Source of the DNA: Candidatus Electrothrix yaqonensis
GTDB lineage: Bacteria > Desulfobacterota > Desulfobulbia > Desulfobulbales > Desulfobulbaceae
Assembly: GCA_047651235.1 (NCBI GenBank)
Contig: CP178758.1
Coordinates: 1,140,001 to 1,172,000, forward strand
Direction: 5' to 3'
Length of the DNA: 32,000 nucleotides
The first letter of the stretch is position 1. Every line of letters begins with the position of its first letter. The notes beneath the pieces are model-generated. The model saw only the letters and a list, made by a program, of their open reading frames with translations. It did not search any database and was not told the origin of the DNA. This document shows positions 1,789 to 19,330 of this stretch, in pieces. Both the position numbers and the translations under genes were made by a program.

Positions 1789-2970
1789 ATGCAGAACTTT
1801 GTCTTCCACAATCCGACAAAAATTATCTTCGGTCGGAATACGGTACCCTCTGCAGGTCCGGAAACGGCAGAGCTGGGCCGCAAAGCCCTGCTGGTGTACG
1901 GCCGGTCCAGCATCAGGGAAAGCGGCCTGTACGACCAGGTGCTCGATGCACTGAGCAATGCCGGAGTGAGCGTTGTCGAGCACGGCGGCACCCGGTCCAA
2001 CCCGGTGCTTGAGCATGTCCGGGCAGGTATTGCCAAAGCCAAAAAAGAGCAGGTCGAGGTTGTTGTCGCAGTGGGCGGCGGTTCGGTCATCGACACGGCC
2101 AAGGCCATTGCAGCCGGCAGTGTTGTGGAGCATGATGTCTGGAAATTTTTTACCGGGAAAAAATCCGTCAAAGCGGCCCTGCCTGTCCTCACCGTGCTCA
2201 CCCTTGCGGCTGCCGGTTCGGAAATGAATTCTGGCATGGTGATCACCAATCAGGACTCGCAGGAAAAATTCGGTTTCGGTCACCGCCTGCTCTATCCGAA
2301 AACTTCTATTCTTGACCCGGAACTTACCTATACCGTGCCGCCCAATTATACAGCCTACGGCGCAGTGGATGCCATCGCCCATGTGCTTGAATTCTATATG
2401 ACAGTACAGGACGACGACACACCAGTGCAGGGCCGGTTCATAGAAGGACTGATTCTCGACGCGATGGAATCCTGTGAACGCTGTCTTCTTGATCCCCACG
2501 ACTACGGCGGTCGGGCCAACCTGATGTGGACAGCCACCCTTGCCCTGAACGGCCTGACAGCGGCAGGCCTCGGTCAGGTCGGATTTCCCATGCATATGAT
2601 CGAACATTCCCTAAGCGCTCTGTATGATGTGCCGCACGGGGCCGGGCTTTCCGTGGTTATTCCGGGCTGGCTGCGCTGGCAGCAGCGGCAGGATCCGACC
2701 CGTATCGCCCGGCTGGGACGCGGTATCCTCCCGATAGTTGATCGGCACGAAAGCGCATCAGCGGATAATACCGAAGTTGCGGAGCGGACAATCGGCTTTC
2801 TCCGCGACTGGTTCATCAGGGTGAACAGTCCGGTTTTCCTGGAAGAATTGAATATTCCGACAGCAGATATTCCCAAAATCGCTGAAAACGCTCTGGCCCT
2901 GGCCCGTGTCTGGCGGCTGCACCAGTACTCCCAGGAGACTATTGAAGAAGTCCTGCATCTTTGTCGGTAA
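1789..2970 (+). CDS. Iron-containing (group III) alcohol dehydrogenase, YqhD/butanol dehydrogenase-like
   Basis: 393 aa. GGGSVIDTAKAIA nucleotide-binding motif, and metal-binding His motifs (DAIAHVLE, HMIEHSLSALYDVPHGAGL). Confidence 0.85.
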   Translation: MQNFVFHNPTKIIFGRNTVPSAGPETAELGRKALLVYGRSSIRESGLYDQVLDALSNAGVSVVEHGGTRSNPVLEHVRAGIAKAKKEQVEVVVAVGGGSVIDTAKAIAAGSVVEHDVWKFFTGKKSVKAALPVLTVLTLAAAGSEMNSGMVITNQDSQEKFGFGHRLLYPKTSILDPELTYTVPPNYTAYGAVDAIAHVLEFYMTVQDDDTPVQGRFIEGLILDAMESCERCLLDPHDYGGRANLMWTATLALNGLTAAGLGQVGFPMHMIEHSLSALYDVPHGAGLSVVIPGWLRWQQRQDPTRIARLGRGILPIVDRHESASADNTEVAERTIGFLRDWFIRVNSPVFLEELNIPTADIPKIAENALALARVWRLHQYSQETIEEVLHLCR

Positions 2971-3022
2971 ACGGAGGGTGCAAAGAATTCATAAGAAAAC
3001 AGCACCTTCAGAGAAAGCATTG

Positions 3023-3454
3023 TCACTTGCCCCCTTTTTCGTTCATGCTCCAATAATCAAATATTTTTTCAACGGTTTCTCTGATTTTTCCGGCTTCTAT
3101 CGGCTTCAGGATATAGCTGTTCGCGCCGTTTTTATACGCCATGTTTATATCCTTCCGGGAATTTGACGTGGTAAAAATAATTATGGGAACACTTCTTAAT
3201 ATTTCATTTTTCTTAAATGCTTTTAATACTTCGTGTCCGTCATATTTGGGCAGCTTCAGGTCGAGTAAGATAAGGTCGGGCGGAGTGTCCGAAACATGAA
3301 AACCTTGGATAAAGCCCATGGCCTGTTCCCCGTCTGGGAGCCTTTTTGTTTCCACGGTTTCTTGACAGACCTCATTTATATAGAAATCGATGAGTTCAGC
3401 ATGGTCATCATTATCCTCAATAAGAAGAACGGAGCATTTTTTAATTTCTTCCAT
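3023..3454 (-). CDS. Response regulator, receiver domain only (CheY-like)
   Basis: 143 aa. VLLIEDNDDH acidic pocket, phospho-acceptor context LILLDLKLP, IIIFTTS, and conserved Lys in YILKP. No output domain. Lies 8 bp downstream of the kinase gene. Confidence 0.85.
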   Translation of the reverse strand: MEEIKKCSVLLIEDNDDHAELIDFYINEVCQETVETKRLPDGEQAMGFIQGFHVSDTPPDLILLDLKLPKYDGHEVLKAFKKNEILRSVPIIIFTTSNSRKDINMAYKNGANSYILKPIEAGKIRETVEKIFDYWSMNEKGGK

Positions 3455-3462
3455 GATAAAGA

Positions 3463-5271
3463 TTAGTTGTTGTTAACTTTTTGTTCGGTGGGAAAAGAAA
3501 GCCAGAATGCAGCTCCTTTTCCGGGAGAAGATTCAACCCAGACTTTTCCTTCGTGGAACTGCATTACTTTTTTAACTACGGCGAGGCCAATTCCTGTTCC
3601 CTCTATCGTATTGTCGAGACGTTGAAAAAGACCGAAGATCTTTTGATGAAAATCCGGTTCTATTCCGGGGCCATCATCTTTGACATATAAAAGAGCCTCG
3701 TTCTTCCTGGTTATTCCTCCAATCGTTACCTTGCTCCCTTTCGGTTTGACGGCATATTTCAGCGCATTGCTCAGGATATTTTCAAAAACCTGGAGTACCC
3801 GGCTTTCATTGCCATAAATAAGCGGCAGGTTTTTCTCAACTATAAGGGTTATCTTGGCATTATGGAATCTGCGTTGTTTTTCTTCTTTTAATTTCTGTAA
3901 AAGAAGGTTCATGTCCAGTTGTTTTTTGTCGAGATCGATTCTTCCAACCCTGCTCAGCTCCACCAGATCGTTGATCAACTGCCCCATCCTGTTGTTTGCC
4001 TCAACCACTTTCTTTAGTTTTTCCAAAGCCTTTTCGTATTCGCCTCTTTTGGCCAGCTTATTTACAATGCCAATGAAGCCCATACTTGTCACCAGGGGGG
4101 ATTTCAGGTCATGGGAAACCGTGTAAACAAATTGCTCAAGTTCGTCATTTGACCGGGCAAGCTCCCTGCTCTTTTCTTCCAGCTCCCTTGTCATTTCTCC
4201 GGCTAAGGCTTCAGCCAGCTTTCTTTTTCTTGAATTGATAAGAATTACGAGGAAAAGCATTACGTCAACAAGGATGCCGCCAAAGGCAACAAACAACGGC
4301 TGGTTTTCCTCTTCCTGAGACGTGAAGCCCGGTTTTGAATAGAGGTAAAGCGACCAGACCCTGCCCGCAATGGTTACCTTATATAAGCCGTCATATTGAG
4401 GTTTATGCGCGCTGTTGTTATAAAGAAGTTTTTCCGGTTCCGCATGGTTATACAGGATTGTTTCAGGCGAGGGCGTTTCGCCGTCATATATTTCAAAACT
4501 GATGTCCTCCTGCGCGGCAAGGAGGATTCCCCGCATGAGGTCTTTCACCCGGAAGGGGCTATATACGTAGCCGACAAGCTCTTCCTGACGTTGGAGCACC
4601 GTTTCCAATGCTTTGTTTTTCCGGTAGAGAGGCAGATAAAGAAGAAAACCGTATTGGACGTCTTTATCGGTCTCCTGCACCAGGGTCACCCGCCCGGACA
4701 TGGCTGCCACGCCGGTGTCCCTGGCTCGTTCCATGGCGTTTTTCCTTGTCTCCTGGGAAAACATATCGTACCCAAAGGCCCGTTGATTCCTCCAGTCAAA
4801 GGGTTCCAGATAGATGATCGCACTGTACATGTCCCGTTCCCCATCGGGTTTGATCCGGTAATCCGGGAAACCTTCTGAGCGGATGGACCTTTCATGCTCC
4901 TCTTTTTTTTCAGGAGGCACCATCAGACTGAAGCCGATACCCTGAATGCCCGGATAGTATTTCTCGATATTCAGGTTGTCCGTAAGCGCCTTCCATTCCT
5001 CCCGGCTGACAACTTCGGATGCTTTGAACAAGCCGAGACCGCTCCGCAGCACCACTTCATATTCCTGCATTCTTTTGGTAATTGCAGATACAATGTCCGT
5101 TGCCTGGTATTCGAAACGCTCAGCAATTCGCTTTTCTACCGCACGATCCGCTATATGCCATGCAAACCCGGTGATAATAAGGGAAATAACAAGGACCACC
5201 CAAGGCGTCGCCTGGATTTGAAGAATGCGGTCAAGAGCAGTTTGTCGCGCTGTTTTGGGAAGTTTATTCAT
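3463..5271 (-). CDS. Sensor histidine kinase with periplasmic CHASE domain
   Basis: 602 aa. N-terminal TM helix, then a CHASE-like region (YYPGIQGIGF...YSAIIYLEPFDWRNQRAFGYDM...RDTGVAAMSGRVTLVQE) and a second TM helix. Coiled coil, HisKA H-box (SHDLKSPL), and HATPase_c N/G boxes (DDGPGI, GTGIGLAVV). Confidence 0.85.
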   Translation of the reverse strand: MNKLPKTARQTALDRILQIQATPWVVLVISLIITGFAWHIADRAVEKRIAERFEYQATDIVSAITKRMQEYEVVLRSGLGLFKASEVVSREEWKALTDNLNIEKYYPGIQGIGFSLMVPPEKKEEHERSIRSEGFPDYRIKPDGERDMYSAIIYLEPFDWRNQRAFGYDMFSQETRKNAMERARDTGVAAMSGRVTLVQETDKDVQYGFLLYLPLYRKNKALETVLQRQEELVGYVYSPFRVKDLMRGILLAAQEDISFEIYDGETPSPETILYNHAEPEKLLYNNSAHKPQYDGLYKVTIAGRVWSLYLYSKPGFTSQEEENQPLFVAFGGILVDVMLFLVILINSRKRKLAEALAGEMTRELEEKSRELARSNDELEQFVYTVSHDLKSPLVTSMGFIGIVNKLAKRGEYEKALEKLKKVVEANNRMGQLINDLVELSRVGRIDLDKKQLDMNLLLQKLKEEKQRRFHNAKITLIVEKNLPLIYGNESRVLQVFENILSNALKYAVKPKGSKVTIGGITRKNEALLYVKDDGPGIEPDFHQKIFGLFQRLDNTIEGTGIGLAVVKKVMQFHEGKVWVESSPGKGAAFWLSFPTEQKVNNN

Positions 5272-5713
5272 GCAATTTTTTTTGAGAAGGAGGTATCCTG
5301 AGTCTTCGCCTAAAGATAGTATACATTATTACATGTGCAACATATACCAGTATATGCTGCTTCAGCAAAATTAGGGGTAAATTAACCTTTTCTCATCAGT
5401 TGAGTTGATCGATTTCCGATCAACAAAATGTATGCGTTAACTTATGTCATATCGAGCTTGTTTACTGCTATGCTAACCGATTTTCTTCCAACTGCGTAAA
5501 ATTAACTTTGCAGGGAGTCCTGTAATTACTTGTCTTATAGCAGTATTTTTCAATTTGCATTCACTTTTTGTCCTCTCCCCCTGGGTCTGCAGAAACAGCA
5601 GTCCGATTTCACGAAGATTAAGCGTCAGACGGACTCAAAAAAGTAAATGTGCCCAAAGAAAACAATCAGGGCAATCAGCTATCCACTATCTTACGTCAAA
5701 CTTAGGCTAATAA

Positions 5714-5808
5714 CTGATGTTACGCACGCAAATAAAAGATCAGTAAGTTACGAGACACCCAAAGCATAGAATCTGCCGATTTTGCGTTTCGGCTGCGTAA
5801 CATCAGCT
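5714..5808 (-). repeat. Hairpin repeat element, copy 1 (core 5747-5808 on the minus strand) plus an outer 13-bp inverted repeat
   Basis: The reverse complement of 5747-5808 aligns with 14775-14840 at about 80% identity by hand alignment. Shared features are GTTACGCAG...CGTAAC outer arms and the loop CGGCAGATTC. CTGATGTTACGCA at 5714-5726 is the exact reverse complement of 5794-5806. Confidence 0.5.
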
Positions 5809-6039
5809 GATAAGATGACAGGTCAGGAACAACGGTCAGCTACAACGCCCTGAACCAGTTCTATATCTTTCCGGCTGACGGATTCAGCAGGAAGGGAGAT
5901 TCCTTTCTATATCGAGATCAAACCAGAGGACCAGATCAAGGATCCGGGGATTATCCGAATGGAAAAAGAAGAACAGGGCAAGGCAATGCAGCAGGGTGAG
6001 CAGAAGGACTATGGAACGGGAATTAAATAACTACGGGAT

Positions 6040-6605
6040 TCAAAGCCGTCCTGACGGAACAGCGGCATAATTCCACTTCGGCAGAAACTCGTCGAATTGA
6101 ATTTTCATATTTCATATTTTCTTTAAAACCGTCAGCCGTTTTGCGGCCTGTCTCGAAGAGGAATTCAGATTTTCCATGTGTCGTCCACCAGTTCCGAATA
6201 CAGGCGCACCCGAACTCGGAGGTGTCACCGCTTGTCCATAATGTGATATAACCGATATTACTGTATATATCATACAGTCCATAGGCGAACCCGCCGTGTG
6301 ATTTTTCAGCACCGCGAAAAATGCGTCGTCAAGACACCGACGGCGGTCGAGAGGACGGATTTACGTCCCCCGCCCGGTTTGCGAATTCGTTCTTCTTTTT
6401 CAGGCAGAGGCTGTTTCAGCTCATTCATCCCGCGACGGACCCGGTCAGAATCACACCGCAACACGTCGCATATATACGTTATGCCGCCGTATCCGAACTT
6501 TCCCGCTTCAACTGCGGCGTATCGACGGCGGTCTTTTTCAGACAGGCTGCCGTAAAAATTACGCATTCGCATTTCTATCTCAGGAGAATATGTCTTTATC
6601 TTCAT
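6040..6605 (-). pseudogene. ISAzo13-family transposase remnant (internally deleted, frameshifted)
   Basis: The 99-aa ORF at 6306-6605 matches the family N-terminus as I remember it (SLSEKDRRRYAAVEAGKFGYGGITYI...RIRKPGGGRK). A different frame near 6040-6100 reads FDEFLPKWNYAAVP followed by a stop, resembling the family C-terminal FHGEWNY. The total of about 565 bp is far short of an expected gene of about 1.3 kb. Confidence 0.55.
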
Positions 6606-6982
6606 AACCGGATGAGAATAAACGCAACTATGAAATTGTCAATGACCTGTCAGCAAGTTCCGTTGTTATTAAATTTTCATTCCTGAGTATATTATCCGGC
6701 GTCCGATTGTGAACTCTCTGGGATAATCAGGAAGGTTAACGAAACAAGGAGACGACAGATACTACACTGCAGGCTATAGTTGTTCCCATATAAGCTTCCA
6801 GGCCCATTTTTCGTTTTTCAAGTGGCTGTTTTTGGGGACTCGGAAGTTATTCCGGAACAACTCTAATCTAACCTGTTGACCTTTTCTGTTCCTCATTCCA
6901 CACCCACACAGATACTGCTGCAAGCGCAATGCAGAAGATCAGATTTCCAGCGGCCAACAGGTCAAATGGACTTCAGGCAGCA

Positions 6983-7981
6983 TTATCTCTCAAACAGATT
7001 GGCGATATTGCCGATTACAGAGCCTTCGCCCACGTTCTTTCCTCCGGCCTGCGGTGCTGCCGACCAGATGCGTCCGGCCAAGCGGGAGAAAGGCAGGGAC
7101 TGCAGCCAGACATGGCCCGGTCCGCGCAGGGTGGCAAAGAAGAATCCTTCCCCGCCGAACACGGCGGACTTCACATTGCCCACGTATTCGATATCATATT
7201 TCACGGTTTGGGTCAGAGCGACCAGACAGCCGGTATCCACCCGCATGGTCTCGCCTGCCTGCAACTGGCGTTCGACAATAGTCCCCCCGGCATGGACAAA
7301 GCAGAGCCCGTCGCCGTCTAACTGCTGCATAATGAAACCTTCCCCGCCGAACAGGGCCACGCCGATTCGCTTCTGAAAGGCCACCCCGATGGCAACGCCC
7401 TTGGCTGCGCAGAGAAAGGCATCCTTCTGGCAGATGATTCTGTTGCCGTATTTGCTCAGATCAAGGGGAATAATCTTGCCCGGATAGGGCGAGGCAAAGG
7501 CAACCTTGCCCTTTCCCTGACCGAGAAAGGTGAATATAGTGATAAACAAGCCTTCTCCGGTGATCAGCCGCTTGCCTGCCCCGAGCATCTTGTCGAAGAA
7601 ACCGCCCTGCTGCGAGGCAGCGGACCCGTCGCCAAAGATGGTGTCCATCTTGACATTATCGCTCATGTACATCATACTGCCTGCTTCAGCCACCACGCTT
7701 TCCTGCGGATCCAATTCAACCTCGACAAACTGCATCTCATGGCCGAAGATCTCGTAGTCAATCTCGTGGGACTGACGACCGGTCATGGGTGGCGGCGCAT
7801 TGCCTGCTGTACCGGGATCAGTCAGCTCCGTCACCTGTGCCAGAGGCAGCCAGTCAGTGAAGCCGTCCCGCCAGACCATAGTGGACTGACTGTACTGGCC
7901 GGAGCGCACTCCGGCGAGCATCTTCTGCTGGGAAAGAGGACCGACAGTCTGGCCGTTGACAGCCACATACCAGTTGGACAT
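6983..7981 (-). CDS. GYF_2 domain fused to TIGR00266/AIM24 (DUF124) family protein
   Basis: The N-terminus [14 protein letters not shown]...[16 protein letters not shown] is GYF_2-like. The rest ([22 protein letters not shown]...[29 protein letters not shown]...[22 protein letters not shown]) is AIM24/TIGR00266-like. I prefer the ATG at 7981 (GAGG 6 nt upstream) over the listed GTG at 7993. Confidence 0.8.
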
Positions 7982-8100
7982 AATGCACCTCACAGGTAAA
8001 ATTTTTCAGAATCCGCTGTGTCGATGAGACCTGCCATCCAGGGCAGGACATCAGGGATGAGCCAGGAGAATATCTGCTGTAGTCTGCTATAATTCCAGAT

Positions 8101-9474
8101 ATGGACAAAAAAATCATAAAAAAAATACAGGAGGCGGTCGGGAAAGGTAATCTGCTGACCAGTGCCGAGGAGTGTGCCTGCTACAGCTATGATGCCTCAG
8201 GCCGGACCTTCATGCCGGACGCCGTAGCCTTGCCGGAAACATCAGATCAGGTTGCCGAACTGATGCGGCTTGCTGACGAATACCGGTTTCCGGTGATTCC
8301 GCGTGGAGCAGGCAGCGGCACTACGGGCGGTGCTCTGCCTGTTGCAGGTGGCGTGGTAGTGGGCTTCAGCCGTATGAACAGGATCCTGGAGATCGATCCG
8401 ATGAATATGATTGCCGTGGTAGAACCGGGAGTTATCACCGGCGAGCTGCAGACGGCCTTAAAAAAACACGGCCTGATGTACCCGCCGGATCCGGCCAGCC
8501 TGAAGTTCTGCTCCCTTGGCGGCAATGCTGCTGAATGCGCAGGCGGTCCCAGCGCGGTGAAGTACGGAGTGACCCGTGATTACATCATCGGGCTGGAGGC
8601 AGTGCTGCCCGACGGCAAACGCATCCGCACCGGCGTGCGCACGGAAAAAGGCGTGGTCGGGTATGACCTGACCCGGCTGCTCATCGGCTCCGAAGGTACC
8701 CTGGCTCTGTTCACCAAGCTGATCCTCCGGCTCCTGCCTCTGGCCGAGGCCAAGGCGACTTTTCTTCTCAGCTTCTCCTCCCTGGACAGGGCCACCGGAC
8801 TGGTTGCGGAGATCCTCTCTGCCGGACTTATGCCCTGCACCCTGGAGTACATGGATAAAACCGCAGTGGAGGTAGTGCGGAACCGGCTTGGAACACCACC
8901 GCCCCCGGACACGGCAGCGCTGCTACTGGTGGAGTTTGACGGTACAGCTACGGAGGTAGCAGGGCAGGGAAGGCTGTTCACCGAGTTTGTCCGGCAACGG
9001 GAAAACTCGGTGCTCCGGCAGGCAGCGGATGATACGGAAACCGAAGAACTTTGGCAGGCCCGCCGCTCCATCGCACCTGCCTGCCTCTCCCTGCGGCCCC
9101 ATAAGATTGCCGAAGACGTGGTGGTGCCCCGTTCACGAATTCCGGAACTGGTCCGGTTCACTGAGCGGCTGGCCCGGGAGCTGAATCTGATCATCCTCAC
9201 CTTCGGTCATGCCGGAGACGGCAATATCCACGTCAATATCATGGTGGATAAACAGAACGATCAGGAGCTTCGTGCTGGCCTTCAGGCAAAAGAACGGCTC
9301 TTTCCGTTTGTGCTCGACCTCGGCGGCACCCTGTCCGGTGAACACGGGGTCGGTATCACCAAATCAGCCTTTCTGCCTCTGGAGATCGATCAGGACACTC
9401 TGTTGCTCATGCGGCAGATCAAAGAACTGTTTGACCCGCATAATATCCTCAATCCGGGGAAAATTTTTTTCTGA
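8101..9474 (+). CDS. FAD-linked oxidase, glycolate oxidase subunit GlcD-like
   Basis: 457 aa. FAD_binding_4 region (PVIPRGAGSGTTGG) and C-terminal FAD-oxidase domain (GTLSGEHGVGITK...FDPHNILNPGKIF). Confidence 0.85.
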   Translation: MDKKIIKKIQEAVGKGNLLTSAEECACYSYDASGRTFMPDAVALPETSDQVAELMRLADEYRFPVIPRGAGSGTTGGALPVAGGVVVGFSRMNRILEIDPMNMIAVVEPGVITGELQTALKKHGLMYPPDPASLKFCSLGGNAAECAGGPSAVKYGVTRDYIIGLEAVLPDGKRIRTGVRTEKGVVGYDLTRLLIGSEGTLALFTKLILRLLPLAEAKATFLLSFSSLDRATGLVAEILSAGLMPCTLEYMDKTAVEVVRNRLGTPPPPDTAALLLVEFDGTATEVAGQGRLFTEFVRQRENSVLRQAADDTETEELWQARRSIAPACLSLRPHKIAEDVVVPRSRIPELVRFTERLARELNLIILTFGHAGDGNIHVNIMVDKQNDQELRAGLQAKERLFPFVLDLGGTLSGEHGVGITKSAFLPLEIDQDTLLLMRQIKELFDPHNILNPGKIFF

Positions 9475-9547
9475 TTGCCGGGCATTTCTTTTACAGGTCT
9501 TTGACCTAACGGAATGTCAGAGGCACAGATGGTCCGGTCTAATCGTC

Positions 9548-10027
9548 TTATCTGCGGCGCTTCTTCCGCCACTCCCAGGGAGGCGTCGGCCTTTTATCCC
9601 GCCAGAGACCAGCCTTTTTCTTTTTCGCTCTTTCTTCGAGCTTCCTGAACTCGGTGCAGAGCGGCTGCTTTTTGCAGTAGGCGGGATAGACCCAGGCATA
9701 ACCGGCCCGCACCAGTTCCCGGTTGAGCATTTTACGGCCTATGCTGACCAGACCGACAGTGCGGCCATACTGGTCGGTATGCATAGTTTCCACCCGTACC
9801 TTCTTACCCAGAACCATCTGCCTAGCAAAGTCTGTTGCCTCTTTCCCGTATTTCTGCCTGCTTTCCGGGCAGTCAACGCCGTACAGCCGCACCTTGACGA
9901 TTTTCTTCCCCTGCTGCACATGCAGGGTGTCGCCGTCCGACACCCTGACCGCCTCGCCCTTCCAGCCGTGCGCAGAACTCGGCAGCAGCCAGTGCAGGCA
10001 GCAGAACCATTGTAGAGTTTTTTTCAT
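9548..10027 (-). CDS. Secreted thermonuclease (staphylococcal nuclease, SNase) family protein
   Basis: 159 aa. Signal-like N-terminus. SNase core DGDTLHV...VRLYGVDCPE...GKEATDF...DQYGRTVGLV...NRELVRAGYAWVY. Highly basic C-terminal tail. Confidence 0.8.
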   Translation of the reverse strand: MKKTLQWFCCLHWLLPSSAHGWKGEAVRVSDGDTLHVQQGKKIVKVRLYGVDCPESRQKYGKEATDFARQMVLGKKVRVETMHTDQYGRTVGLVSIGRKMLNRELVRAGYAWVYPAYCKKQPLCTEFRKLEERAKKKKAGLWRDKRPTPPWEWRKKRRR

Positions 10028-10261
10028 GTCTTATCCGTTAATTATCTGCGGAAAGATACCACCTGATTTTTAAGGTGACGGCTTTGACAAAAGGCCTCTG
10101 TTGTTCAGCAATTCTGCACCGGACGCGAGATAAAACCGCTCTGTCCATTTCTGCTGCAGAATAAAAATTTGTAGATTGCAAGCCGTATGTTCAATGTACA
10201 AGGTTGCAGCATTACAGCAAAGAAGAAAAAATATTTTGTCCGCCTGAGACAGCCGGTGCGG

Positions 10262-10511
10262 TTATAATCCCCGCATTCCTTCCGTTTTTAAAGCAACATT
10301 TCCGGCAAGGGCACGGTCAATGGTTGCCAGAAAGTTTTCCCTGTCTCTGGGCAGACGACCGTCAAGAGTGAAATAATTGGAGGCATGGTTGGCCTGAAAC
10401 TGGCAGTGGAAATCCTCCAGTCCGGCAATCATGGTGCGGAGTTCCCGGAACAGTTCGAGCTGGTCCGGCGGCTGAAAGGAACCGTCTGCCGCAGCACGAC
10501 CCAGTTCGGTA
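10262..10511 (-). pseudogene. Radical SAM protein, 3' fragment (82 codons plus stop), separated from its 5' part
   Basis: The minus-strand frame reads TELGRAAADGSFQPPDQLELFRELRTMIAGLEDFHCQFQANHASNYFTLDGRLPRDRENFLATIDRALAGNVALKTEGMRGL followed by a stop. It has no start codon and begins directly at the TA flanking the MITE at 10512. Confidence 0.75.
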
Positions 10512-10614
10512 TAGCTGGAGCAGTATAAACTGAATACAGGATCAGCTATCTGAAAGGCGTGAAGGCAAAACTTATGCCTCTTGTGGGCATATTCAAATTA
10601 TGTTGCTCCAGCTA
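10512..10614. mobile_element. 103-bp MITE, copy L (IS630/Tc1-mariner-like ends, TA-flanked)
   Basis: Perfect reverse complement of 11392-11494, checked base by base. 11-bp perfect terminal inverted repeat TAGCTGGAGCA, with about 21/26 matches over the extended ends. TA on both flanks (10510-10511 and 10615-10616). Confidence 0.8.
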
Positions 10615-10763
10615 TACTTCTTCGCCTTTTGCTGCTGTTCTGCCCATTCCAGTACTTGATCGAATTTGCTTTGGCCAGCAGGGGGGGCGGAAGAAACACG
10701 GGGGATAATTGCGGAAAACTCAGAGTGAACTTGAACACACTTAACCTGCTGAAAAAGTAAGTT

Positions 10764-11391
10764 TTGCATTACCAAGGCAACATCATCCGGCCTCCCAGTG
10801 AGGCCAATTCCATCATCCTCCAAGTCACGGTCGGCTGTTCGCACAACCGCTGCACTTTCTGCGGGGCCTACCGCGATCCTGAACAGCGGTTCTGGATCAA
10901 AGACGAACGCATTGTTACGGAAGACATCGCCTTTGCCGCCTGCTACTGCAGCCGTCAGAAGACCGTCTTTCTTGCCGACGGCGATGCCTTGGTTATCCCG
11001 CAGAAACGGCTGCTCAACCTTTTTGAGCAGATACGGAATGATCTCCCTTGGGTGCGACGCATCAGTCTGTATGCCAACTGCCGCAATATCCTCAAACGCT
11101 CTGCTGAGGAACTGGCTGAGCTGAAACAAGCCGGTCTGGGACGCATCTACATGGGCCTGGAAAGCGGCCATGATCCAACACTGAAGGCAATCCGTAAAGG
11201 GGCAACTGCAGCCGAAATGGTTCAGGCCGGCAGACGGGTACGGGAAGCAGGCATTTTTTTCTCTGTCACCTGTCTGCTCGGTATTGCCGGACCGGCTTAT
11301 TCGCAGCAGCATGCCGAGGCCACAGCAGCCGTGCTCAGCCGGATGCAGCCGAACCAGATCGCTGTGCTGACCCTGATGCTGCTGCCTAATA
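10764..11391 (+). pseudogene. Radical SAM protein, 5' fragment (209 codons), truncated by the MITE
   Basis: TTG start. HYQGNIIRPPSEANSIILQVTVGCSHNRCTFCGAY carries the CxxxCxxC radical SAM cluster. The listed ORF ends 17 nt into the MITE (IAGAT then stop), so the native sequence stops at the TA at 11390-11391. Confidence 0.8.
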
Positions 11392-11494
11392 TAGCTGGAG
11401 CAACATAATTTGAATATGCCCACAAGAGGCATAAGTTTTGCCTTCACGCCTTTCAGATAGCTGATCCTGTATTCAGTTTATACTGCTCCAGCTA
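11392..11494. mobile_element. 103-bp MITE, copy R (inverted relative to copy L)
   Basis: Identical to the reverse complement of 10512-10614. TA on both flanks (11390-11391 and 11495-11496). Confidence 0.8.
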
Positions 11495-11496
11495 TA

Positions 11497-12188
11497 TCCC
11501 GACGTTTATGAAAAGAGGCGTTGTCCATGACAACCACACTGCGTTCAGGCAGTTTCGGTAATAAATCCTGCCTGATCCATGCATAAAACACATCGGAATT
11601 GACGGTCCCGTCGAACAGAGTCACCGTCAGCAGATTTTTCCCGGACAGTGCGCCGACAGCATTGATACGGCCCTTCTCCCGCCAATTATGAATACCGGAG
11701 CATCGTTCACCTACGGGCGCATATCCGCAGGTGCGCGGCATATCATGAGCGAAGCCGCTTTCATCAATATAAATCAGAGGAAAACCGGATTCCTCATATG
11801 TGCTGATTTTATCGACAAAGACAGAGCGTTTCTTTTCATCCGCCTTCGGATGCGAAAGAATTTTTTTTACGGCTGATTTTCAGGCGTTTCAGAGCTTCCC
11901 CTATACCGCGCTGGCTGCATCCGAACCGTTCATACTGATACGCATCGGGATACAGTTCAACATCACGGGCGAGCAGTTCCATGTCAATATTTGTTGCCGG
12001 TTTATTTCGGCTCCGGCAGGGTTCGACACGTTTCGTCCATCGGCTCACGCTGGATTTACCGACTCCGAAACGGGCTGCGGTTTTTTCGAAACTCAGACCG
12101 TCCCGCTCTTTGACTTCCAAAATTTTACGGCGAAAATCTATTGAATATGTCATGCCGATATAATACTCATTTTATTCTGCTTCAGCTA
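11497..12188 (-). pseudogene. IS630-family element remnant: transposase frameshifted at an A8 run and truncated after the second catalytic Asp
   Basis: N-terminal HTH ORF at 11836-12153 (SIDFRRKILEVKERDGLSFEKTAARFGVGKSSVSRW). It continues in the +1 frame as LSHPKADEKKRSVFVDKISTYEESGFPLIYIDESGFAHDMPRTCGYAP...VVVMDNASFHKR, then runs into the MITE. The end at 12188 reads (reverse complement) TAGCTGAAGCAGAATAAAATGAGTAT followed by TA, matching 21/26 with the MITE end. Confidence 0.75.
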
Positions 12189-12290
12189 TATCACACAGGA
12201 ACACGGCACATGTCCTGATGGAGACAGATACGGGACAGGAGGATCCCTGTCCCGCAGGAAGGTAACAGCAAGCAGTATAGAAAACAGCAA

Positions 12291-13046
12291 TCAGGCTGCT
12301 TTTGAGCAGCAGTCTTGGGAAGGTTGTTCAGCGGGCTGTTTCAAAACTGACATGACGGCTGCCAGCTCCATCAGTATACCCATTCCCTCCTGAACTTCCG
12401 GACGTTTCAGGGCGGACAGCATACCGAAGATGCCGGTGACCGGTTTGACCTCGTCAAGGTTGATTGCCTTGACTCTGGCACTGACCCGCTCACCGATTTC
12501 CATCATCCGTTCAAAATCATCAAACAGGCCGCGTTGTTTGAGGCTGTCCAGACGTTCAACCACGTCATCAAAGATCGGGCCGCTCAACTCGGCAACATCG
12601 CGCTTCATATCCATCATTGAACTGAGCATCTTCATGACCTCGGCAATATTGCCCATGTTGACGATGAACTGTTTGATCAGCTCCTGCAGATTCTCCCCCT
12701 CAAAGCCATGCAGGGCGGTCTGCAGGCGGAGCGTCGCCTCTTGAAAGATGTCCTTTGTGTACGGCTCAAAATCCCTTTTAAAGTCCATGATGCTGTTCAG
12801 GGTCCGGAGAGCATCGGCAATATTTCTGCTGGAAGCCAGTGATTGGCCGACCATATCCCCGACCTCTTCCAGCTCCACATGCTTATTCAGGCCGTCCAGG
12901 CGGGCCGTGGCCTCATGGACCATCGAGTGGACCAAGGGTTCCAGCTCCTGCTTCAGCTCCACATAGGGCCTGACAGCCTGTTTGGCCTCCCGCACTTCCT
13001 CGGTGAGTTCATCGAGGCGGGCGAGAATTTTTTCTTCATTGGTCAT
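12291..13046 (-). CDS. DUF1641 domain protein with three internal helical repeats
   Basis: 251 aa. The C-terminus GIFGMLSALKRPEVQEGMGILMELAAVM is the DUF1641 signature as I recall it. Three repeats of about 55 aa (LEPLVHSMVHEATARLDGL / FEPYTKDIFQEATLRLQTAL / AELSGPIFDDVVERLDSL). Lies 11 bp downstream of the flavoprotein gene. Confidence 0.7.
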   Translation of the reverse strand: MTNEEKILARLDELTEEVREAKQAVRPYVELKQELEPLVHSMVHEATARLDGLNKHVELEEVGDMVGQSLASSRNIADALRTLNSIMDFKRDFEPYTKDIFQEATLRLQTALHGFEGENLQELIKQFIVNMGNIAEVMKMLSSMMDMKRDVAELSGPIFDDVVERLDSLKQRGLFDDFERMMEIGERVSARVKAINLDEVKPVTGIFGMLSALKRPEVQEGMGILMELAAVMSVLKQPAEQPSQDCCSKAA

Positions 13047-13057
13047 AATACGCCCCC

Positions 13058-14287
13058 TTATTCCTGAACCTTGCCCGCAAGAGACATCTGGGCCTCAAGC
13101 GGTAACTCCTCACCGGTCAGCAGTTTGTTCCAGTACACCCATTTGAACATCATCTTGCCCCAATGATTGGCCTTGGTGTCGCCGAGGAGAGAAAAGGGCC
13201 CGATGCCGGGCAGGGGAAATTTACCGGGCAGGGGCTCATACTCATAGTTGAAGTCAATGAGAGAGGCCTTACCATAGCCGGTCTCAATGAAACAGTTGGA
13301 ATGACCATCATAGTCCGGTTGAACAGGCTCGCCGTTGATCTCACGCATGAAGTTCTCTATCATGATTTCTGCGGAGAAGTGGGCCACTGAACCGGCCTTG
13401 GAGGTGGGAATGGTTGTATTGTCCCCGAGGACATACATATTTTTATGGTTTTCCGCCTGCAGGGTATTATTGTTGGTCTTGACATAACCGACTTCATCCA
13501 TAGCGACCCCGGAATTGACCAGATAGCGGGCTCCCACATTGGGCGGAATGGAAACCAGCAGATCCCATTCGATTTCATCCCCTGATGCGGAGACCAGTTT
13601 ATTATTGGTGCAGTCAACCTCGGCAAGGATAAAATCTGCAGTGACCTCGATGTTTTTGTCGAGCATCATCTTGGTAAAGTAGGCGGATGCCTTGGGCTTG
13701 GTAAAGGCGCCGGTCATGGGGGTGACAAAATGAATGTCGATCTGGTCACGCACACCCCGCTCGGCAAAATACCAGTCAGCAAGATAGACAAATTCCAGCG
13801 GCGCCACCGGACATTTATACGGGAATTCTGCAATGTTCAGCACCATCTTGCCGCTTTTGAAGCTGCGCAGTTTCTTTTCCAGATTTATCGCCCCTTCTAA
13901 GGTGTAAAAATCAAAGACCTTGGTCTGCCAGCCGTCCATCATGCCCGGAACTTCTTCCGGGGCCAAACTCACACCGGAACAAACGATGACTTTGTCGTAT
14001 TCATATTTACCTGCTGTGGTCTCAACGACTTGCGTCTCTGTATCAACACTGACAATTTCATCAATGACAAAATTGATCCCCTTGCCGATAAACTCGCTGC
14101 GGCTGCGGATAATCTCCTCGGGCTTGTACATGCCGAAGGGGATAAAGATCAGGCCGGGCTGATAAATATGTTTGTCATCTTTATCAATAAGTGTAATGGA
14201 CCATTCGTTGCGGTCCAGCTTCTTGCGCAGGCTATTTGCCACCATTGTTCCTGCACAGCCCGCTCCAAGAATAACCAGTTTGTTCAT
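13058..14287 (-). CDS. NAD(P)/FAD-dependent oxidoreductase, sulfide:quinone reductase / NDH-2-like
   Basis: 409 aa. N-terminal Rossmann motif LVILGAGCAGT, the FPYKCPVAPLEF motif, and a second dinucleotide-fold region YVLGDNT. Confidence 0.8.
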   Translation of the reverse strand: MNKLVILGAGCAGTMVANSLRKKLDRNEWSITLIDKDDKHIYQPGLIFIPFGMYKPEEIIRSRSEFIGKGINFVIDEIVSVDTETQVVETTAGKYEYDKVIVCSGVSLAPEEVPGMMDGWQTKVFDFYTLEGAINLEKKLRSFKSGKMVLNIAEFPYKCPVAPLEFVYLADWYFAERGVRDQIDIHFVTPMTGAFTKPKASAYFTKMMLDKNIEVTADFILAEVDCTNNKLVSASGDEIEWDLLVSIPPNVGARYLVNSGVAMDEVGYVKTNNNTLQAENHKNMYVLGDNTTIPTSKAGSVAHFSAEIMIENFMREINGEPVQPDYDGHSNCFIETGYGKASLIDFNYEYEPLPGKFPLPGIGPFSLLGDTKANHWGKMMFKWVYWNKLLTGEELPLEAQMSLAGKVQE

Positions 14288-14595
14288 TGTTCATCTCTCC
14301 CTTTAAAATTTCTTCTGTTGGCTGACCGGCTAATCCGACCGGCTCAGTCCTGACTGTCACCAGAGGCAGGTATGGGAACATATGATCTCAATGCCTGCAT
14401 GAGCTTCATAGCCTCTGAAGCGTCAACATTTGATGTACCACAAGGCATCTCGGCATGTCAAGAGAAGATGACTGCACTGTGGTACCTTTTAATATACATC
14501 ACGTTTATTTTTATGTAACTTATTGTTTTATTATAAAGATAAGAAGGGAGCTGGCCCTGCAGTTCCTGCTTCACGCTGACAGCTTGCTGCGCATA

Positions 14596-14698
14596 TAGCG
14601 ATTTCAGCTTGAATGAGTATCAATTGTAGGTTGATAACCTATTGATTATAGATGGCTATAAAGTCAAATATTGATTGTCACTCAAATTGAAACTGCTA
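14596..14698. mobile_element. Second type of 103-bp TA-flanked MITE-like element
   Basis: Ends TAGCGATTTCAGCTTGAATGAGTATCAAT and (reverse complement) TAGCAGTTTCAATTTGAGTGACAATCAAT form imperfect terminal inverted repeats. TA at 14594-14595 and 14699-14700. The subterminal AATGAGTAT also occurs in the IS630 end near 12160. Confidence 0.45.
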
Positions 14699-14774
14699 TA
14701 GCTGAAAATACCGCATCCGGCCCGGTTAAGGAAAGTCGTCAATCTGATTGATTCTCCTGCTATAATCCATTAAG

Positions 14775-14840
14775 AGCTGACGTTACGCAGCCCAAATGCA
14801 GAACCGGCAGATTCCACATTTGGGCTGTCCCGTAACGGAC
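14775..14840 (+). repeat. Hairpin repeat element, copy 2
   Basis: GTTACG-CAG-CCCAAATG [loop CAGAACCGGCAGATTCCA] CATTTGGG-CTG-(TCC)-CGTAAC gives about 18 bp of pairing. Homologous to the reverse complement of 5747-5808. Confidence 0.5.
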
Positions 14841-14859
14841 TCAAGACTCCGATACTCAG

Positions 14860-14913
14860 AAAAAAGAAAACCGTCTCTGATCCGAGATCATCCGGTTCGG
14901 ATCAGAGACGGTT
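14860..14913 (-). terminator. Rho-independent terminator of the 16642-14946 operon
   Basis: Perfect 17-bp stem (14869-14885 pairs with 14897-14913) and an 11-nt loop. On the minus strand it is followed by TTTTCTTTTTT. Lies 33 bp downstream of the stop at 14946. Confidence 0.8.
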
Positions 14914-14945
14914 GTTTCTCCGGATAAGGAGAGGGAGGGGATTGG

Positions 14946-15734
14946 TTACTTGCTGGCTGCCTGATGATGAAATTCTTCCAGATCCGTGAGTTCTTTCTCC
15001 AGTTTTTCCACTGATTCCAAAATAAGCACAGGCAGAGCAGCTCTCTCGATATCCACGAGGAACTCCTTGGCTACCGGCCAGAATTCATTGAGCCTGTCGC
15101 GGCTTTTCTGCGCACTGTCTGAATACTTTCTGTAATTATTCACTGTGGACAGAGCAGCATCAAAGTTCTGTACAGCCTGCTTCAGCTGGGACACATTGTT
15201 GTAATCCTTGAATTCTGCCTGGTAGGCGATGTAGAGTTTGTTGATACGCTCCAACAGAAAGAGCATCTGTTCGACCGTGACCAGCATTTCTTGCTCAGGG
15301 TTCGTTTTATGCACGTGCTGCTGCGCGATAAATTCCGCGCCTTCCAGCAGAGATTCGCTGTAGTCGATGATGAGCGCGCCATTCCCCCTGCTGTAGGGTT
15401 TGTCGAGTGTATTCTTCAGCTCATCATAGGTATATTCGAGAAAGACCGTTATATTTTTTTCTCCCTTGTCTCCTTCTCCTTTTTCTATCCCCTCCTGAAG
15501 GATGCTCAGATCCTTCTGCAGAAGGACGAGGCTTTTCTGCAGGTCTTCTGCTGCCCGGTGAGGACGGATCTCCTGCTGCTTGTAAAAATATGCCTTGGCT
15601 ATTTTCTGACTGAGAAATTCGACATTTTCCGCAGCCTCCAGCGTAGCCAGATCGTGGGCAAAGGATGTACTGATCCACAATGCGCAGGTGAAAAAGACTG
15701 CGGCTGATATCTTGAGAGCTTTTCTGCTGTTCAT
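14946..15734 (-). CDS. Secreted all-alpha protein, function unknown (two PilJ/NarX-like four-helix-bundle-type half repeats)
   Basis: 262 aa. Signal peptide ending STSFA. Two similar halves (LSQKIAKAYFYKQQ... and LFLLERINKLYIAYQ...). GGAGGTG Shine-Dalgarno sequence 5 nt upstream. Start overlaps the upstream stop as ATGA. Confidence 0.65.
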   Translation of the reverse strand: MNSRKALKISAAVFFTCALWISTSFAHDLATLEAAENVEFLSQKIAKAYFYKQQEIRPHRAAEDLQKSLVLLQKDLSILQEGIEKGEGDKGEKNITVFLEYTYDELKNTLDKPYSRGNGALIIDYSESLLEGAEFIAQQHVHKTNPEQEMLVTVEQMLFLLERINKLYIAYQAEFKDYNNVSQLKQAVQNFDAALSTVNNYRKYSDSAQKSRDRLNEFWPVAKEFLVDIERAALPVLILESVEKLEKELTDLEEFHHQAASK

Positions 15735-16642
15735 GATTTCACCTCCCCGACCTGTACAATTCCCGTGATTGCCCTGAAAATCTCTCCGGCACCTTTCTCG
15801 TCCGCAATCGGGATGAAATAGGATACGCTGCTTTCCACCAGTTCCTCCTCCATGTGCAGGATTTCCTGTAGCTCTGCAAAGATTTCACTCGCCATTTTTT
15901 CTGCAGCTGACGGCATCATGCGTCCGGATTTGCTGGTCGCCATCACACTGAAGGATATAAACTCCTTCTCGACCTTTTTCAGTTTCTCTTTGATCTCTTG
16001 TGAGACAAGTTTTTCGTCCTCTTCCAGCAGCTCCCTGTATATTTTTTCCGTTTGATCAACGACCTCTTTTACTTCCTCTTCGTAGTTGGGATCAGCAACG
16101 CCCCAGGCCTTCATCAGGTACAGAGCTGCCAGGCGTTGGGATTCCATACCCAGCTCGGCGACCAGAACTACATCGTGTTCGCCTTTAATTTTAGTATCCT
16201 TGGATAAATCCTCAGCGACATCTTCACAGCGCACAGTGAACTTCTCCACCATCACACGAAGATCGTGCATCTTTGTTTTGTCCGGCTTTTTCTGAAATTC
16301 AGGTTTGATGGCATTCCAGGATTTTTCAATCTCCACGATTTCCGCCACCAGTTTTTCGCTCAGTTTGTGGCTTTCAAGATCCTTGAATTCTTCTTTTATA
16401 GCTTTGAGGTTTTCTTCAAGGTCTTTCTTAGGATTATGATATTTCACCTCCATGCCGACCAGAGCATAATCCTTTAAAATACGGTTGGCCTGCATGCAGA
16501 TATCAGCCACTTTGTGAACATCCTCTGCAGAGGCGTTTGCCGATACCTCTGAGGCGAGCAGCAGCATGATAAAAGCTGCCACGGTGAACAGGTACCTGGC
16601 AGGCAGACAAATGAATTTCTGTTTCGTGCATCTTCGTTGCAT
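15731..16642 (-). CDS. Secreted all-alpha protein, paralog of the downstream gene, function unknown
   Basis: I place the start at ATG 16642 (MQRRCTKQKF..., GGAG upstream), giving 303 aa with a signal peptide ending EVSANA. The listed 346-aa form adds an unlikely Cys/Pro-rich extension. Half repeats (ANRILKDYALVGM..., ESQRLAALYLMKAWG...) parallel those of the neighbouring gene. Confidence 0.65.
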   Translation of the reverse strand: MQRRCTKQKFICLPARYLFTVAAFIMLLLASEVSANASAEDVHKVADICMQANRILKDYALVGMEVKYHNPKKDLEENLKAIKEEFKDLESHKLSEKLVAEIVEIEKSWNAIKPEFQKKPDKTKMHDLRVMVEKFTVRCEDVAEDLSKDTKIKGEHDVVLVAELGMESQRLAALYLMKAWGVADPNYEEEVKEVVDQTEKIYRELLEEDEKLVSQEIKEKLKKVEKEFISFSVMATSKSGRMMPSAAEKMASEIFAELQEILHMEEELVESSVSYFIPIADEKGAGEIFRAITGIVQVGEVKS

Positions 16643-17114
16643 AGTTTTCTCCTTTTCGCATGGGATTGATACAAAGTGCCGCACTGCAGGGGACTTTGCA
16701 GGGCAGGGCAACAAAGAACGGCATGGCCGTTCGTAAGCACAAGTGAGTACAACTGTTTGTTCTTGTGGCAAGACGATGAGGGAAGTTCAAGCTTTTCGGA
16801 AAGAGAGAAACAGCCGGATGATCACCCAGAGTATTTCCTGAGCGATAAGCAGAAAAAAATGGCAGCAGAAAAGATAATGAGACAGGAGGAGAAGGGAATC
16901 CTGCTGCGGGAGCGGGAATTGAGTATTCTTCTGGCAGGATGTAGAACATGCTTTCCGGTCTTCTGAAGTAGAAGCAGGTAGCTCGGCTGTCTCCCCTGGA
17001 GACCCGCAGCTTTCCGACACCACCTCACGGCGGCTGTGGCTTTATCAGCTTTCCGATTCCGACCAGAAAGCAGGTAATATTCATTACATGACTATTACCA
17101 TTTATTATCTTAAT

Positions 17115-17143
17115 GGTATAAAAAGTTTCTTTGTGCTTGTCAA
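17115..17143 (-). promoter_or_regulatory. Candidate sigma70-type promoter for the secreted-protein operon
   Basis: The minus strand reads TTGACA (17143-17138), N17, TATACC (17120-17115), preceded by an A/T-rich stretch. This would give a leader of about 470 nt. Confidence 0.3.
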
Positions 17144-17264
17144 TATTTTTTTAAAAGTAAATACCACGTAGTGTGTTGCCAGTATCGGGCCGAACGAGCA
17201 GGACGGTGTGCCTTTTGATGTATTATAAGGAATATGTGGAGTTGGGCAGGGGGGGGGAGGTGTT

Positions 17265-18435
17265 GTGCGTGCCGAAAAAAAGAAAAAAGAAAACCGTCCT
17301 CCGAACCCAGGGCTGTTCAGTTCTATAAGAGCTTGTATTTTCAAGACGTATGCAGTAATTGATACAGAAAAACTTTACACGAGGATTCTGCATGCTGTTT
17401 TTTTGCTGAACACAATCAAAGATCATCGACGCGGGCAGGGCCGGCGATATGAGCTTACGCATATTCTTCTGTTTTCGATCATGGCGATCCTGAGCGGTTC
17501 GGATTCTTATCGCAAAATCCATCTGTTCGTTGATGCGCATCGTGAAAGGCTCAATGAATATTTCGGCCTGGACTGGAAAAAAGCTCCTGCATATACAACG
17601 ATCCGCACTGTCATTCTGAATACTTCCGGTTCGGAACTTGAGCGGATTTTCAGGGAGCACGGCAAAGCTCTCGCGGAAGAGGAACCGGACGGAGAATTTA
17701 TTCGTTGCGACGGCAAAACTCTCCGGGGAAGTCTCGATAACATGAAGGATATTAATCAGCTTCAGATATTGAGTGCTTTTGCTGGCGACCGCGCCGTCGT
17801 TCTCGGCCATGAAGAAATCAGGGAGAAAAGCAATGAAATCCCGGCGGCGCGGAAACTGATGAAAGAACTCGGTTTATCCGACCGCATTTTTACCTTCGAC
17901 GCCCTTCATTGTCAGAAAAAAACTCTTCAGGCCGCCGCTGAAACGGGAAACGATGTGATTGCTCAGGTTAAAAAAAATCAGAAAACTCTCCTGAACGACT
18001 GTGAAAATATCGCGAATACGTCTGTTCCTGATGATGTTTTCACGGAGCCTTTTGAAAAAAAAACGAAACCGTATAGAGAGTCGCAAAGTGGAAGTTTTTA
18101 TCAGAATCGATCGATTTCGTCAGGTGTTTGATACAAAGAAGAAAAAATGGAAAAACACTCATGAGACATCCTTTTATGTTTCAACAGCCGGTTCGGACGC
18201 TGAAGAAATATGTCAGGGAATCCTGGGGCATTGGCGGATCGAGAATGGAAATCATTATGTTCGGGATGTTTCTATGGGCGAAGACCGCTCCCGAATTCGT
18301 TGCAATCCGCACATATTTGCGAAACTGAGAAGCTTTGCTCTCAATATTCTTCGTAAGAACAAGGTGAAAAATGTCAGCCGGGAGCTTTTCAGGAACTGTA
18401 TGGATTTCAATGTATTATGGGCTGAAAGTCCATAG
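17265..18435 (+). pseudogene. ISAs1-family transposase, split by a +1 frameshift in an A9 run
   Basis: ORF1 has IKDHRRGQGRRYELTHILLFSIMAILSG...IRCDGKTLRGS...FTFDALHCQKKT. After the A9 run at 18055-18063, the +1 frame continues KKRNRIESRKVEVF...GHWRIENGNHYVRDVSMGEDRSRIR. GGAGG lies 4 nt before the GTG at 17265. Confidence 0.8.
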
Positions 18436-18439
18436 AATG

Positions 18440-19010
18440 AAAGGCAACTGAAAGTCGCTATTTCGGCTAAAGCCGATTAAAACCGCTGACTAAAGTCAGT
18501 GTGTAACGACTGAAAGTCGTTATTCTATTTTAAATCGTCATTATTATGATTTGGGTCATTTCTGTGATTTTCAATATAATTCCGTATCATTTCATCAGTA
18601 ACGTGTCCGGAACTCAAAGCAACGCAGCCAATACCCCAAAAATGTTTTCCCCAGTATCTTCTGGACAGTTGAGGAAATTCTTCCTGAATCTTTTTTGAAG
18701 AGCGACCCTTGAAAAATCGCACCATTTCACTCACGGATATTTTGGGAGGATATGACACATAGATATGGACATGATCCTGACTGATATTCCCTTTGATAAT
18801 TTGAATATCTTTCGAATCACATATTCGGCGTATTATCTCTCTGATTCGAATACTTATATCTTTACTTAACACTTTGTAACGATATTTTGTTATCCAAATC
18901 AGGTGAACTTTCAAGTCATGTACGTTGTACGATGATTTTCTATAAGGCCTCATAAATGAGAGTCTACTAAAAGTCTTGGACTAAAGTCCATAGTTTTGAC
19001 TATCGATTGA
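18440..19010 (-). mobile_element. IS200/IS605-family element (approximate ends) carrying tnpA and flanking hairpins
   Basis: tnpA is flanked by short stem-loops at 18463-18476, 18486-18499 and 18504-18522, and at 18977-18990. The exact termini cannot be fixed from one copy. Confidence 0.4.
18525..18953 (-). CDS. tnpA: IS200/IS605-family Y1 (HUH) transposase TnpA
   Basis: 142 aa. HLIWITKYRYKVL, HUH motif QDHVHIYVS, and catalytic Tyr context EMIRNYIENH. Confidence 0.9.
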   Translation of the reverse strand: MRPYRKSSYNVHDLKVHLIWITKYRYKVLSKDISIRIREIIRRICDSKDIQIIKGNISQDHVHIYVSYPPKISVSEMVRFFKGRSSKKIQEEFPQLSRRYWGKHFWGIGCVALSSGHVTDEMIRNYIENHRNDPNHNNDDLK

Positions 19011-19022
19011 AACAATAAAGGC

Positions 19023-19229: not shown

Positions 19230-19330
19230 GCTCAGGGTCATCCCTCGCCTCAGTTTTTTCTATCTTCCTCGCCGACCTTCGCCGAAGCTCCTGCTCCGGC
19301 AACAATCCCGTTAACCTTTTTTCATAACGC

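Follow-up and report, generated by a model that had tools for sequence, protein, structure and literature searches.

A radical SAM gene probably broken and partly inverted by an IS630-type MITE in Candidatus Electrothrix sp. YB6

Among the bacterial MITEs that are comparable to the element described here are RUP of Streptococcus pneumoniae and the Correia elements of Neisseria. It is also part of the general biology of bacterial genomes that homologous recombination between inverted copies of an IS or of another repeat can invert the DNA between them. Elements of the IS630 family insert at a TA, which is duplicated, and move by cut and paste (PMC2170065). MITEs that are related to IS630 and carry TA duplications are well documented, as are the annotation errors that result from them; for example, MITEPlu5 of Photorhabdus is a MITE of 123 bp that derives from the IS630/Tc1/mariner group and has a TA duplication (PMC6267812). 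In Photorhabdus there are also inversions of 3.4 and 5.8 kb, bounded by inverted repeats of 35 and 84 bp, respectively (PMC6267812).

Here we analyse a locus of Candidatus Electrothrix sp. YB6 in which a radical SAM gene lies in two parts on opposite strands, with a copy of a 103-bp unit at each break (Table 1). In the following, the window is the whole 32-kb stretch of DNA that was analysed (32,000 nucleotides), and all positions refer to it. We think it probable that a MITE inserted into the gene, that a chimera of IS630 and the same MITE came to lie upstream of it, and that homologous recombination between the two MITE copies flipped the DNA between them.

Table 1. Parts of the split radical SAM gene, transposon-derived units beside it and further transposase genes in the window
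Feature	Position	Strand	Remarks
Radical SAM gene, 3' fragment	10262-10511	-	Codons 210-291 and stop, from the TA at 10510-10511; TELGRAAADG...MRGL, then stop
Solo 103-bp copy (putative MITE)	10512-10614	+	Runs from end 1 to end 2; TA at 10510-11 and 10615-16
Interior between the copies, 777 bp	10615-11391		Inverted relative to the 3' gene fragment, from the positions of fragments and repeats
Region upstream of the radical SAM start, 147 bp	10617-10763	+	Belongs to the inverted interior
Radical SAM gene, 5' fragment	10764-11391	+	TTG start, codons 1-209 and first base of codon 210; CSHNRCTFC cluster
Second 103-bp copy (putative MITE)	11392-11494	-	Runs from end 1 to end 2; TA at 11390-91 and 11495-96; nested in IS630 orfB
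Chimeric non-autonomous unit, 797 bp	11392-12188	-	5' part of IS630 and nested MITE; terminal repeats and TA at both ends
Truncated IS630-family orfB	11496-11867	-	DDE domain, 124 codons; cut at the TA at 11495-96
IS630-family orfA	11836-12153	-	HTH, 105 aa; annotated as XOF34704.1
Left terminal inverted repeat of the IS630-family element	12164-12188	-	TAGCTGAAGCAGAATAAAATGAGTA; then TA at 12189-90
DDE_Tnp_1 and DDE_Tnp_1_assoc transposase (IS4/ISAs1-like)	17265-18131	+	Pfam scan
IS200-like Y1 transposase	18525-18953	-	Pfam scan

The original prediction, which was made from the DNA letters of this stretch, had described the two copies of the 103-bp unit as perfect reverse complements with 11-bp inverted-repeat termini and a TA on both sides. 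We could reproduce this in full (103 of 103 positions, both copies). If the TA flanks are included, the perfect inverted repeat is 107 nt long at 100% identity, and its arms are 773 nt apart. Each unit ends in TAGCTGGAGCA; its terminal repeats are perfect over 11 nt and can be extended imperfectly to 28 nt (86%). Sites that match TAGCTGGAGCA with at most one mismatch are found six times in the window, while 0.5 are expected. Taken as RNA, the unit has a calculated fold of -41.5 kcal/mol (z = -6). Each copy contains a terminator-like hairpin (10573-10591 on the minus strand and 11415-11433 on the plus strand) that reads TATGCCCACAAGAGGCATA, then AGTTTTGCCT, and the hairpin of the right-hand copy is found just past the stop of the truncated 214-aa ORF described below.

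The two gene fragments can be joined at one TA. Positions 10764-11391, followed by the reverse complement of 10262-10509, give a length divisible by three and a frame without an internal stop, which confirms the in-frame join that had been proposed. The joined protein has 291 aa (...LTLMLLPN/TELGRAA..., where the slash marks the join). This was also correctly given as the normal length for the family: the Electrothrix and Electronema orthologues have 291 aa as well, and the best matches among them show 77-81% identity at 100% coverage. An alignment with intact orthologues had been suggested as a check of colinearity, and in our alignment with 10 of them there are zero gaps across the N/T join, N209 and T210 being invariant. 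The orthologues read AAT ACx at codons 209-210, so that the uninterrupted gene has this TA as well. If one unit and one TA are taken out, the result is an uninterrupted gene of 291 codons that is colinear with the orthologues. These comparisons support the view that the radical SAM gene was hit at a single TA.

The ORF of the 5' fragment continues into the MITE up to position 11408 and has been annotated as a protein of 214 aa (XOF34703.1). The Pfam domain Radical_SAM (PF04055) is found in the product with E = 7e-17, and the protein P0046 is 100% identical to the joined protein across 72% of its length. XOF34703.1, which is annotated as "radical SAM protein", is the product of a truncated pseudogene. 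The inactivation seems to be recent, since both halves are free of stops and their DNA identities to the orthologues are similar (0.75 vs 0.73; the range for the 3' half is 0.71-0.73, and the DNA of the 5' fragment is 75% identical to the E. aestuarii gene). In all ten cable-bacterial and Desulfobulbaceae genomes that were compared, the gene is full-length (100% coverage). No second copy of the gene from YB6 is found among the best 120 matches listed, and thus YB6 has apparently lost this radical SAM gene.

To the right of the second 103-bp copy there is an IS630-family element on the minus strand (11497-12188), which the original prediction overlooked. Both domains of an IS630 transposase are found in it: orfA matches Pfam HTH_Tnp_IS630 (PF01710, E = 2e-14) and orfB, in a shifted frame, matches DDE_3 (PF13358, profile positions 2-94 of 146, E = 1e-19). 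The score for the NCBIfam family transpos_IS630 (NF033545) is below the cut-off (83 bits vs 100) because orfB is truncated. The outer end of the element carries a third terminal repeat, TAGCTGAAGCA at 12178-12188, which matches in 10 of 11 positions, is followed by TA and is the sixth of the TAGCTGGAGCA-like sites in the window. The longer homologues that are closest to orfB (P0122, P0125 and P0133, with 79-87% identity) continue with RRDIREAV or RQDIQEAV and further on to NPIE. A full-length relative was found on the metagenome contig L007, namely a TA-flanked IS of 881 bp with 80% DNA identity over 704 bp; 23 of 25 positions of the left end agree with an end of this IS, and 21 of 25 with end 1 of the MITE. 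The homology to the L007 element breaks between GGGA and TA, exactly where the 103-bp unit begins. Judged from this alignment, the right-hand MITE copy lies within orfB, nested at a TA, and is no solo MITE.

The 3' part of the IS630 copy, about 180 bp with the end of orfB, the NPIE(H/Y)KW region found in full-length homologues and the right repeat, is absent from the window. Of the two terminal repeats and the TA duplication that make up a complete IS, the left repeat and its TA are the only native parts. The element at 11497-12188 is a truncated IS630 derivative and not an autonomous IS. The end of the nested MITE (11478-11498 on the minus strand) resembles the orfB sequence that it replaces (L007 1252-1275), with 12 of 20 nt identical in register and IAGAV in place of IREAV. 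The interior of the IS seems to hold a stretch similar to a terminal repeat at the point of the MITE insertion; this could also be a matter of chance.

We considered whether positions 10617-10763 are the missing 3' end of the transposase, in which case a reversal of the flip would repair it. This was rejected: the region does not extend DDE_3 in any frame, and a tblastn search with the C-termini of full-length orfB proteins gave noise only. A minus-strand PP...W motif in the same region has the wrong spacing and was rejected as a transposase remnant. The region has no similarity to Pfam or IS630 in any frame, and none to the genes upstream of the orthologues.

With regard to its class, the 103-bp unit is well within the size of MITEs (under about 300 bp) and, with a longest open frame of 29 codons, too short for a transposase. 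Its two ends agree with the left end of the adjacent IS630 element in 21 and 19 of 25 positions and with both ends of the L007 IS in 19-21 of 25, and the TA on both sides of both copies is the duplication expected for the family. The structure of the unit supports its assignment to the IS630-type MITEs, a well-known kind in which it would form a new family.

The junction between orfB and the MITE is not confined to this locus. The junction peptide, ...FHKRRDIAGAV followed by a stop, is also present in three YB6 proteins encoded about 700 genes away (XOF35395, XOF35405 and XOF35414), which means that the junction is older than this locus and that the fused form is itself a multi-copy element. 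A further copy in YB6 reads ...RRDIREAV...NPIEH, like intact transposases. Besides the two copies in the window, at least three further loci probably carry the unit, as deduced from proteins that end in IAGAV and a stop; all of these loci are of the IS-fused form. The genome has at least seven copies of orfA at 90% identity or more. Between XOF35395 and XOF35414 we see four fragments of IS630 orfB within about 20 genes, three of which have the MITE-encoded IAGAV tail; possibly, the chimeric element is clustered or arrayed in tandem there. No intact orfB of the IS630 element in the window is found among the annotated proteins of YB6, and the members of its protein cluster (96, 127 and 169 aa) are all truncated. 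The short "IS630 family transposase" proteins ending in IAGAV are read-through into the MITE.

The 103-bp unit was not found in the GTDB representative genomes. Three matches to it in JGI metagenomes were discarded as unrelated, having the 11-nt ends alone in common with it. Related ends, TAGCTGRAGCAG..., are present in other cable bacteria and Desulfobulbaceae. For example, the MAG of Desulfobulbaceae bacterium S01.Bin068 contains six MITEs, each about 104 bp long, bounded by TA and having TAGCTGAAGCAGGATAAAATGAG... ends (L011, L013, L015, L017, L020 and L022), the interior of which is unrelated to that of the YB6 unit. The pattern points to a recurrent birth of MITEs from this subgroup of IS630.

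The history that we consider probable would have started with the insertion of the 103-bp IS630-type MITE at the TA of codons N209/T210, by which the TA was duplicated. The chimera of 797 bp, in which the 5' 692 bp of an IS630-family IS (left repeat, orfA and truncated orfB) are joined at a TA with a further copy of the 103-bp MITE, would have come to lie 147 bp upstream of the start codon, in the opposite orientation to the solo MITE. Homologous recombination by the host between the 107-bp perfect inverted repeats would then have flipped the interior of 777 bp, that is, the 5' 628 bp of the gene together with 147 bp of upstream DNA. Here, the order of the events, the mechanism of recombination and the insertion of the 797-bp unit in one piece beside the 147-bp region are what we infer, starting from the perfect repeats, the colinear join at a single TA, the identity of the IS630 element, the nesting in it and the recurrence of the junction elsewhere. 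With the flip undone, SQR, DUF1641, the chimera, the 147-bp region, the MITE-interrupted radical SAM gene and the SNase gene are all on the minus strand. Note that every junction carries a TA, so that the sequence confirms the pairing of the two gene halves but not that of the non-genic flanks. The original interpretation was largely right but incomplete: a TA insertion in the gene and an inversion of 777 bp do explain the geometry, while the "second copy upstream" is more than a MITE by itself, as it is nested in IS630 sequence and part of the 797-bp chimera.

The surroundings of the gene leave some room for a longer history. In E. aestuarii, Electrothrix Rat3 and Electronema PJ (L002, L004 and L006) rlmN is found directly downstream of the radical SAM gene, and upstream of it the relatives have Fic or another gene; there is no rlmN in the 32-kb window. 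In YB6, the 3' end of the gene is followed by a gap of 234 bp (10028-10261) and a thermonuclease gene, the synteny being broken just past the stop. A putative relic of an IS end at 10148-10166 that could have marked this break was rejected, as its match of 15 of 19 positions is shared by two other sites in the window and the score is reached by 8 of 30 shuffles. In Electronema aureum, different genes follow after DUF1641, and nothing is common with the reconstructed junction. The ancestral adjacency that the reversal would imply (DUF1641 gene, 100 bp, TA, 147 bp, radical SAM gene) has no counterpart in the relatives compared, so more than one rearrangement may have occurred. The window proteins in this neighbourhood have the consecutive accessions XOF34697 to XOF34722. 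At 90% identity, a 409-aa oxidoreductase (13058-14287 on the minus strand) with an ORF that is open throughout clusters with proteins that bear the name "type III sulfide quinone reductase, selenoprotein subtype". A Pfam scan of the ORFs between 1789 and 20335 gave no recombinase but only transposases (IS630, DDE_Tnp_1 and IS200 Y1), and the region is rich in mobile elements.

Potentially, then, the DNA to the right of 11495 (the IS part, DUF1641 and SQR) could have been brought in by an earlier and larger recombination between MITE or IS copies. The local inversion would still be real, while the 797-bp unit would never have inserted upstream of the gene in one piece. This would agree with a synteny that is broken on both sides of the gene, with the conserved partner RlmN missing from the window, with the many copies of this IS630-family IS in the genome and with two other transposase genes within 7 kb. 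On the other hand, it takes more events than the data require, and a poor synteny is to be expected anyway, as YB6 is early-branching with about 80% protein identity to its relatives (PMC12093952); we therefore hold such a longer history to be unlikely. It is about equally doubtful that insertion and inversion were one and the same event, in which the MITE module of the upstream 797-bp unit transposed intramolecularly into the TA of the gene, by a replicative or one-ended mechanism, and thereby made the copy and the inversion of 777 bp together. Replicative elements such as IS26 and Tn3 do produce a duplication and an inversion in one event. Such an event predicts exactly the order that we see (outer flank, element, inverted segment, inverted element and distal target flank, with TA throughout), and the 100% identity of the copies is what a fresh duplication would give. 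However, the same identity is expected from recombination of recent copies or from short-read polishing, and what speaks against the single step is solely that the IS630 family is known to cut and paste; replicative inversion is not known for this family. If it were true, a cut-and-paste family would be capable of inversions of the replicative type. There is a small chance that such a single-step transposition inversion by an IS630-family MITE took place, or else that the 777-bp segment keeps changing its orientation within the clonal culture of YB6. Under both readings the 797-bp unit would be a non-autonomous element of recent origin that propagates itself and still has the gene for the HTH protein of orfA.

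The remaining explanations concern the assembly and a possible function. For the YB6 genome, which comes from a clonal enrichment, Nanopore reads of at least 10 kb with a mean quality above Q20 were assembled with Flye into a closed circular contig, which was polished with Racon and Pilon (PMC12093952). In either orientation of the interior, both inner flanks abut end 2 of the MITE and both outer flanks end 1; the junction k-mers are therefore identical in both, and it takes reads across a full 103-bp unit to distinguish the two orientations. This, together with the fact that contigs from short reads are cut off within the MITE (at 10536 in L001) and that Pilon can homogenise repeat copies when reads map to several places, would allow for an error in the orientation of the interior or in the identity of the copies. 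But each Nanopore read of at least 10 kb spans the whole structure of 1.9 kb, and the Logan contig L001, which derives independently from Illumina reads (SRR31704081), is 100% identical to the window from 6823 to 10536 and confirms the left junction. Since the genome was closed with such long reads a misassembly is unlikely, and an artefact of assembly or polishing seems very improbable to us as the cause of the observed structure. L001 (k=31) covers the first 25 nt of the MITE, which is 3 nt less than it should if the two window copies were the sole cause of its break. Possibly, the sample includes a further sequence, a variant or a third related element, that agrees in the flank and in these 25 nt but differs at position 26.

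The original prediction had also raised the question whether this is an invertible cassette that exists in both orientations in the population. A phase-variation switch, in which the 777-bp cassette flips at a useful frequency, would be suggested by the geometry alone, that is, by perfect inverted repeats around the start of a gene and its upstream region. Against this, the Pfam scan of the ORFs within 1789-20335, which covers about 8 kb on the upstream and 9 kb on the downstream side of the locus, finds no gene for a serine or tyrosine recombinase, the repeats are copies of a transposon rather than short recombinase sites, and the promoter-like sites are at background level (3 found vs 2.4 expected). 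Moreover, the MITE breaks the radical SAM gene whichever way the segment lies, as had been predicted. With no invertase gene nearby and a gene that is broken either way, nothing suggests a functional switch; a cassette in both orientations is unsupported, there being no recombinase nearby and no functional difference between the states, and we consider a working switch to be extremely unlikely.

In summary, the locus is a tidy but ordinary case of transposon-driven gene decay within the known behaviour of mobile elements. As an example it is recent and exact to the base, and it illustrates how IS630-type MITEs knock out genes and seed small inversions in the transposon-rich genome of a cable bacterium. 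Its practical value lies mainly in annotation, where the product of a pseudogene is named a radical SAM protein and transposase fragments carry tails encoded by a MITE.

We can now compare the locus with the systems to which it is closest. Like the bacterial MITEs derived from IS630/Tc1/mariner elements, the YB6 unit is about 100 bp long, has a TA duplication and a strong potential to form a hairpin, and its terminal repeats are related to those of a resident IS630; also here, ORFs have been called into and out of the element. What sets it apart from the known bacterial MITEs is an interior that is unrelated to anything in the GTDB representative genomes or the JGI metagenomes, and that one of its copies is fused to the 5' part of the parent IS. 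The IS part itself has the layout of the IS630 family as seen in ISY100 (PMC2170065) and the 881-bp element of L007, with an HTH orfA, a frame-shifted DDE_3 orfB, TA flanks and 25-nt terminal repeats starting with TAGCTG. In contrast to full-length IS630 elements, however, the right terminus of the copy in the window is the far end of the nested MITE.

With Hin, Gin, Fim, the invertons and the shufflons, the locus shares the inverted repeats around a short segment next to the start of a gene. Unlike these systems, it has no invertase gene and its repeats are 103-bp copies of a transposon; no orientation of the YB6 segment yields an intact gene, and we see a structure without evident function. 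The locus can also be compared with inversions that arise by recombination between inverted repeats, for which perfect repeats of about 100 bp, as found here, need no dedicated recombinase. Compared with the inversions of the Photorhabdus type, the YB6 interior is very small (777 bp), and the split of a conserved gene allows the event to be traced to the single base.
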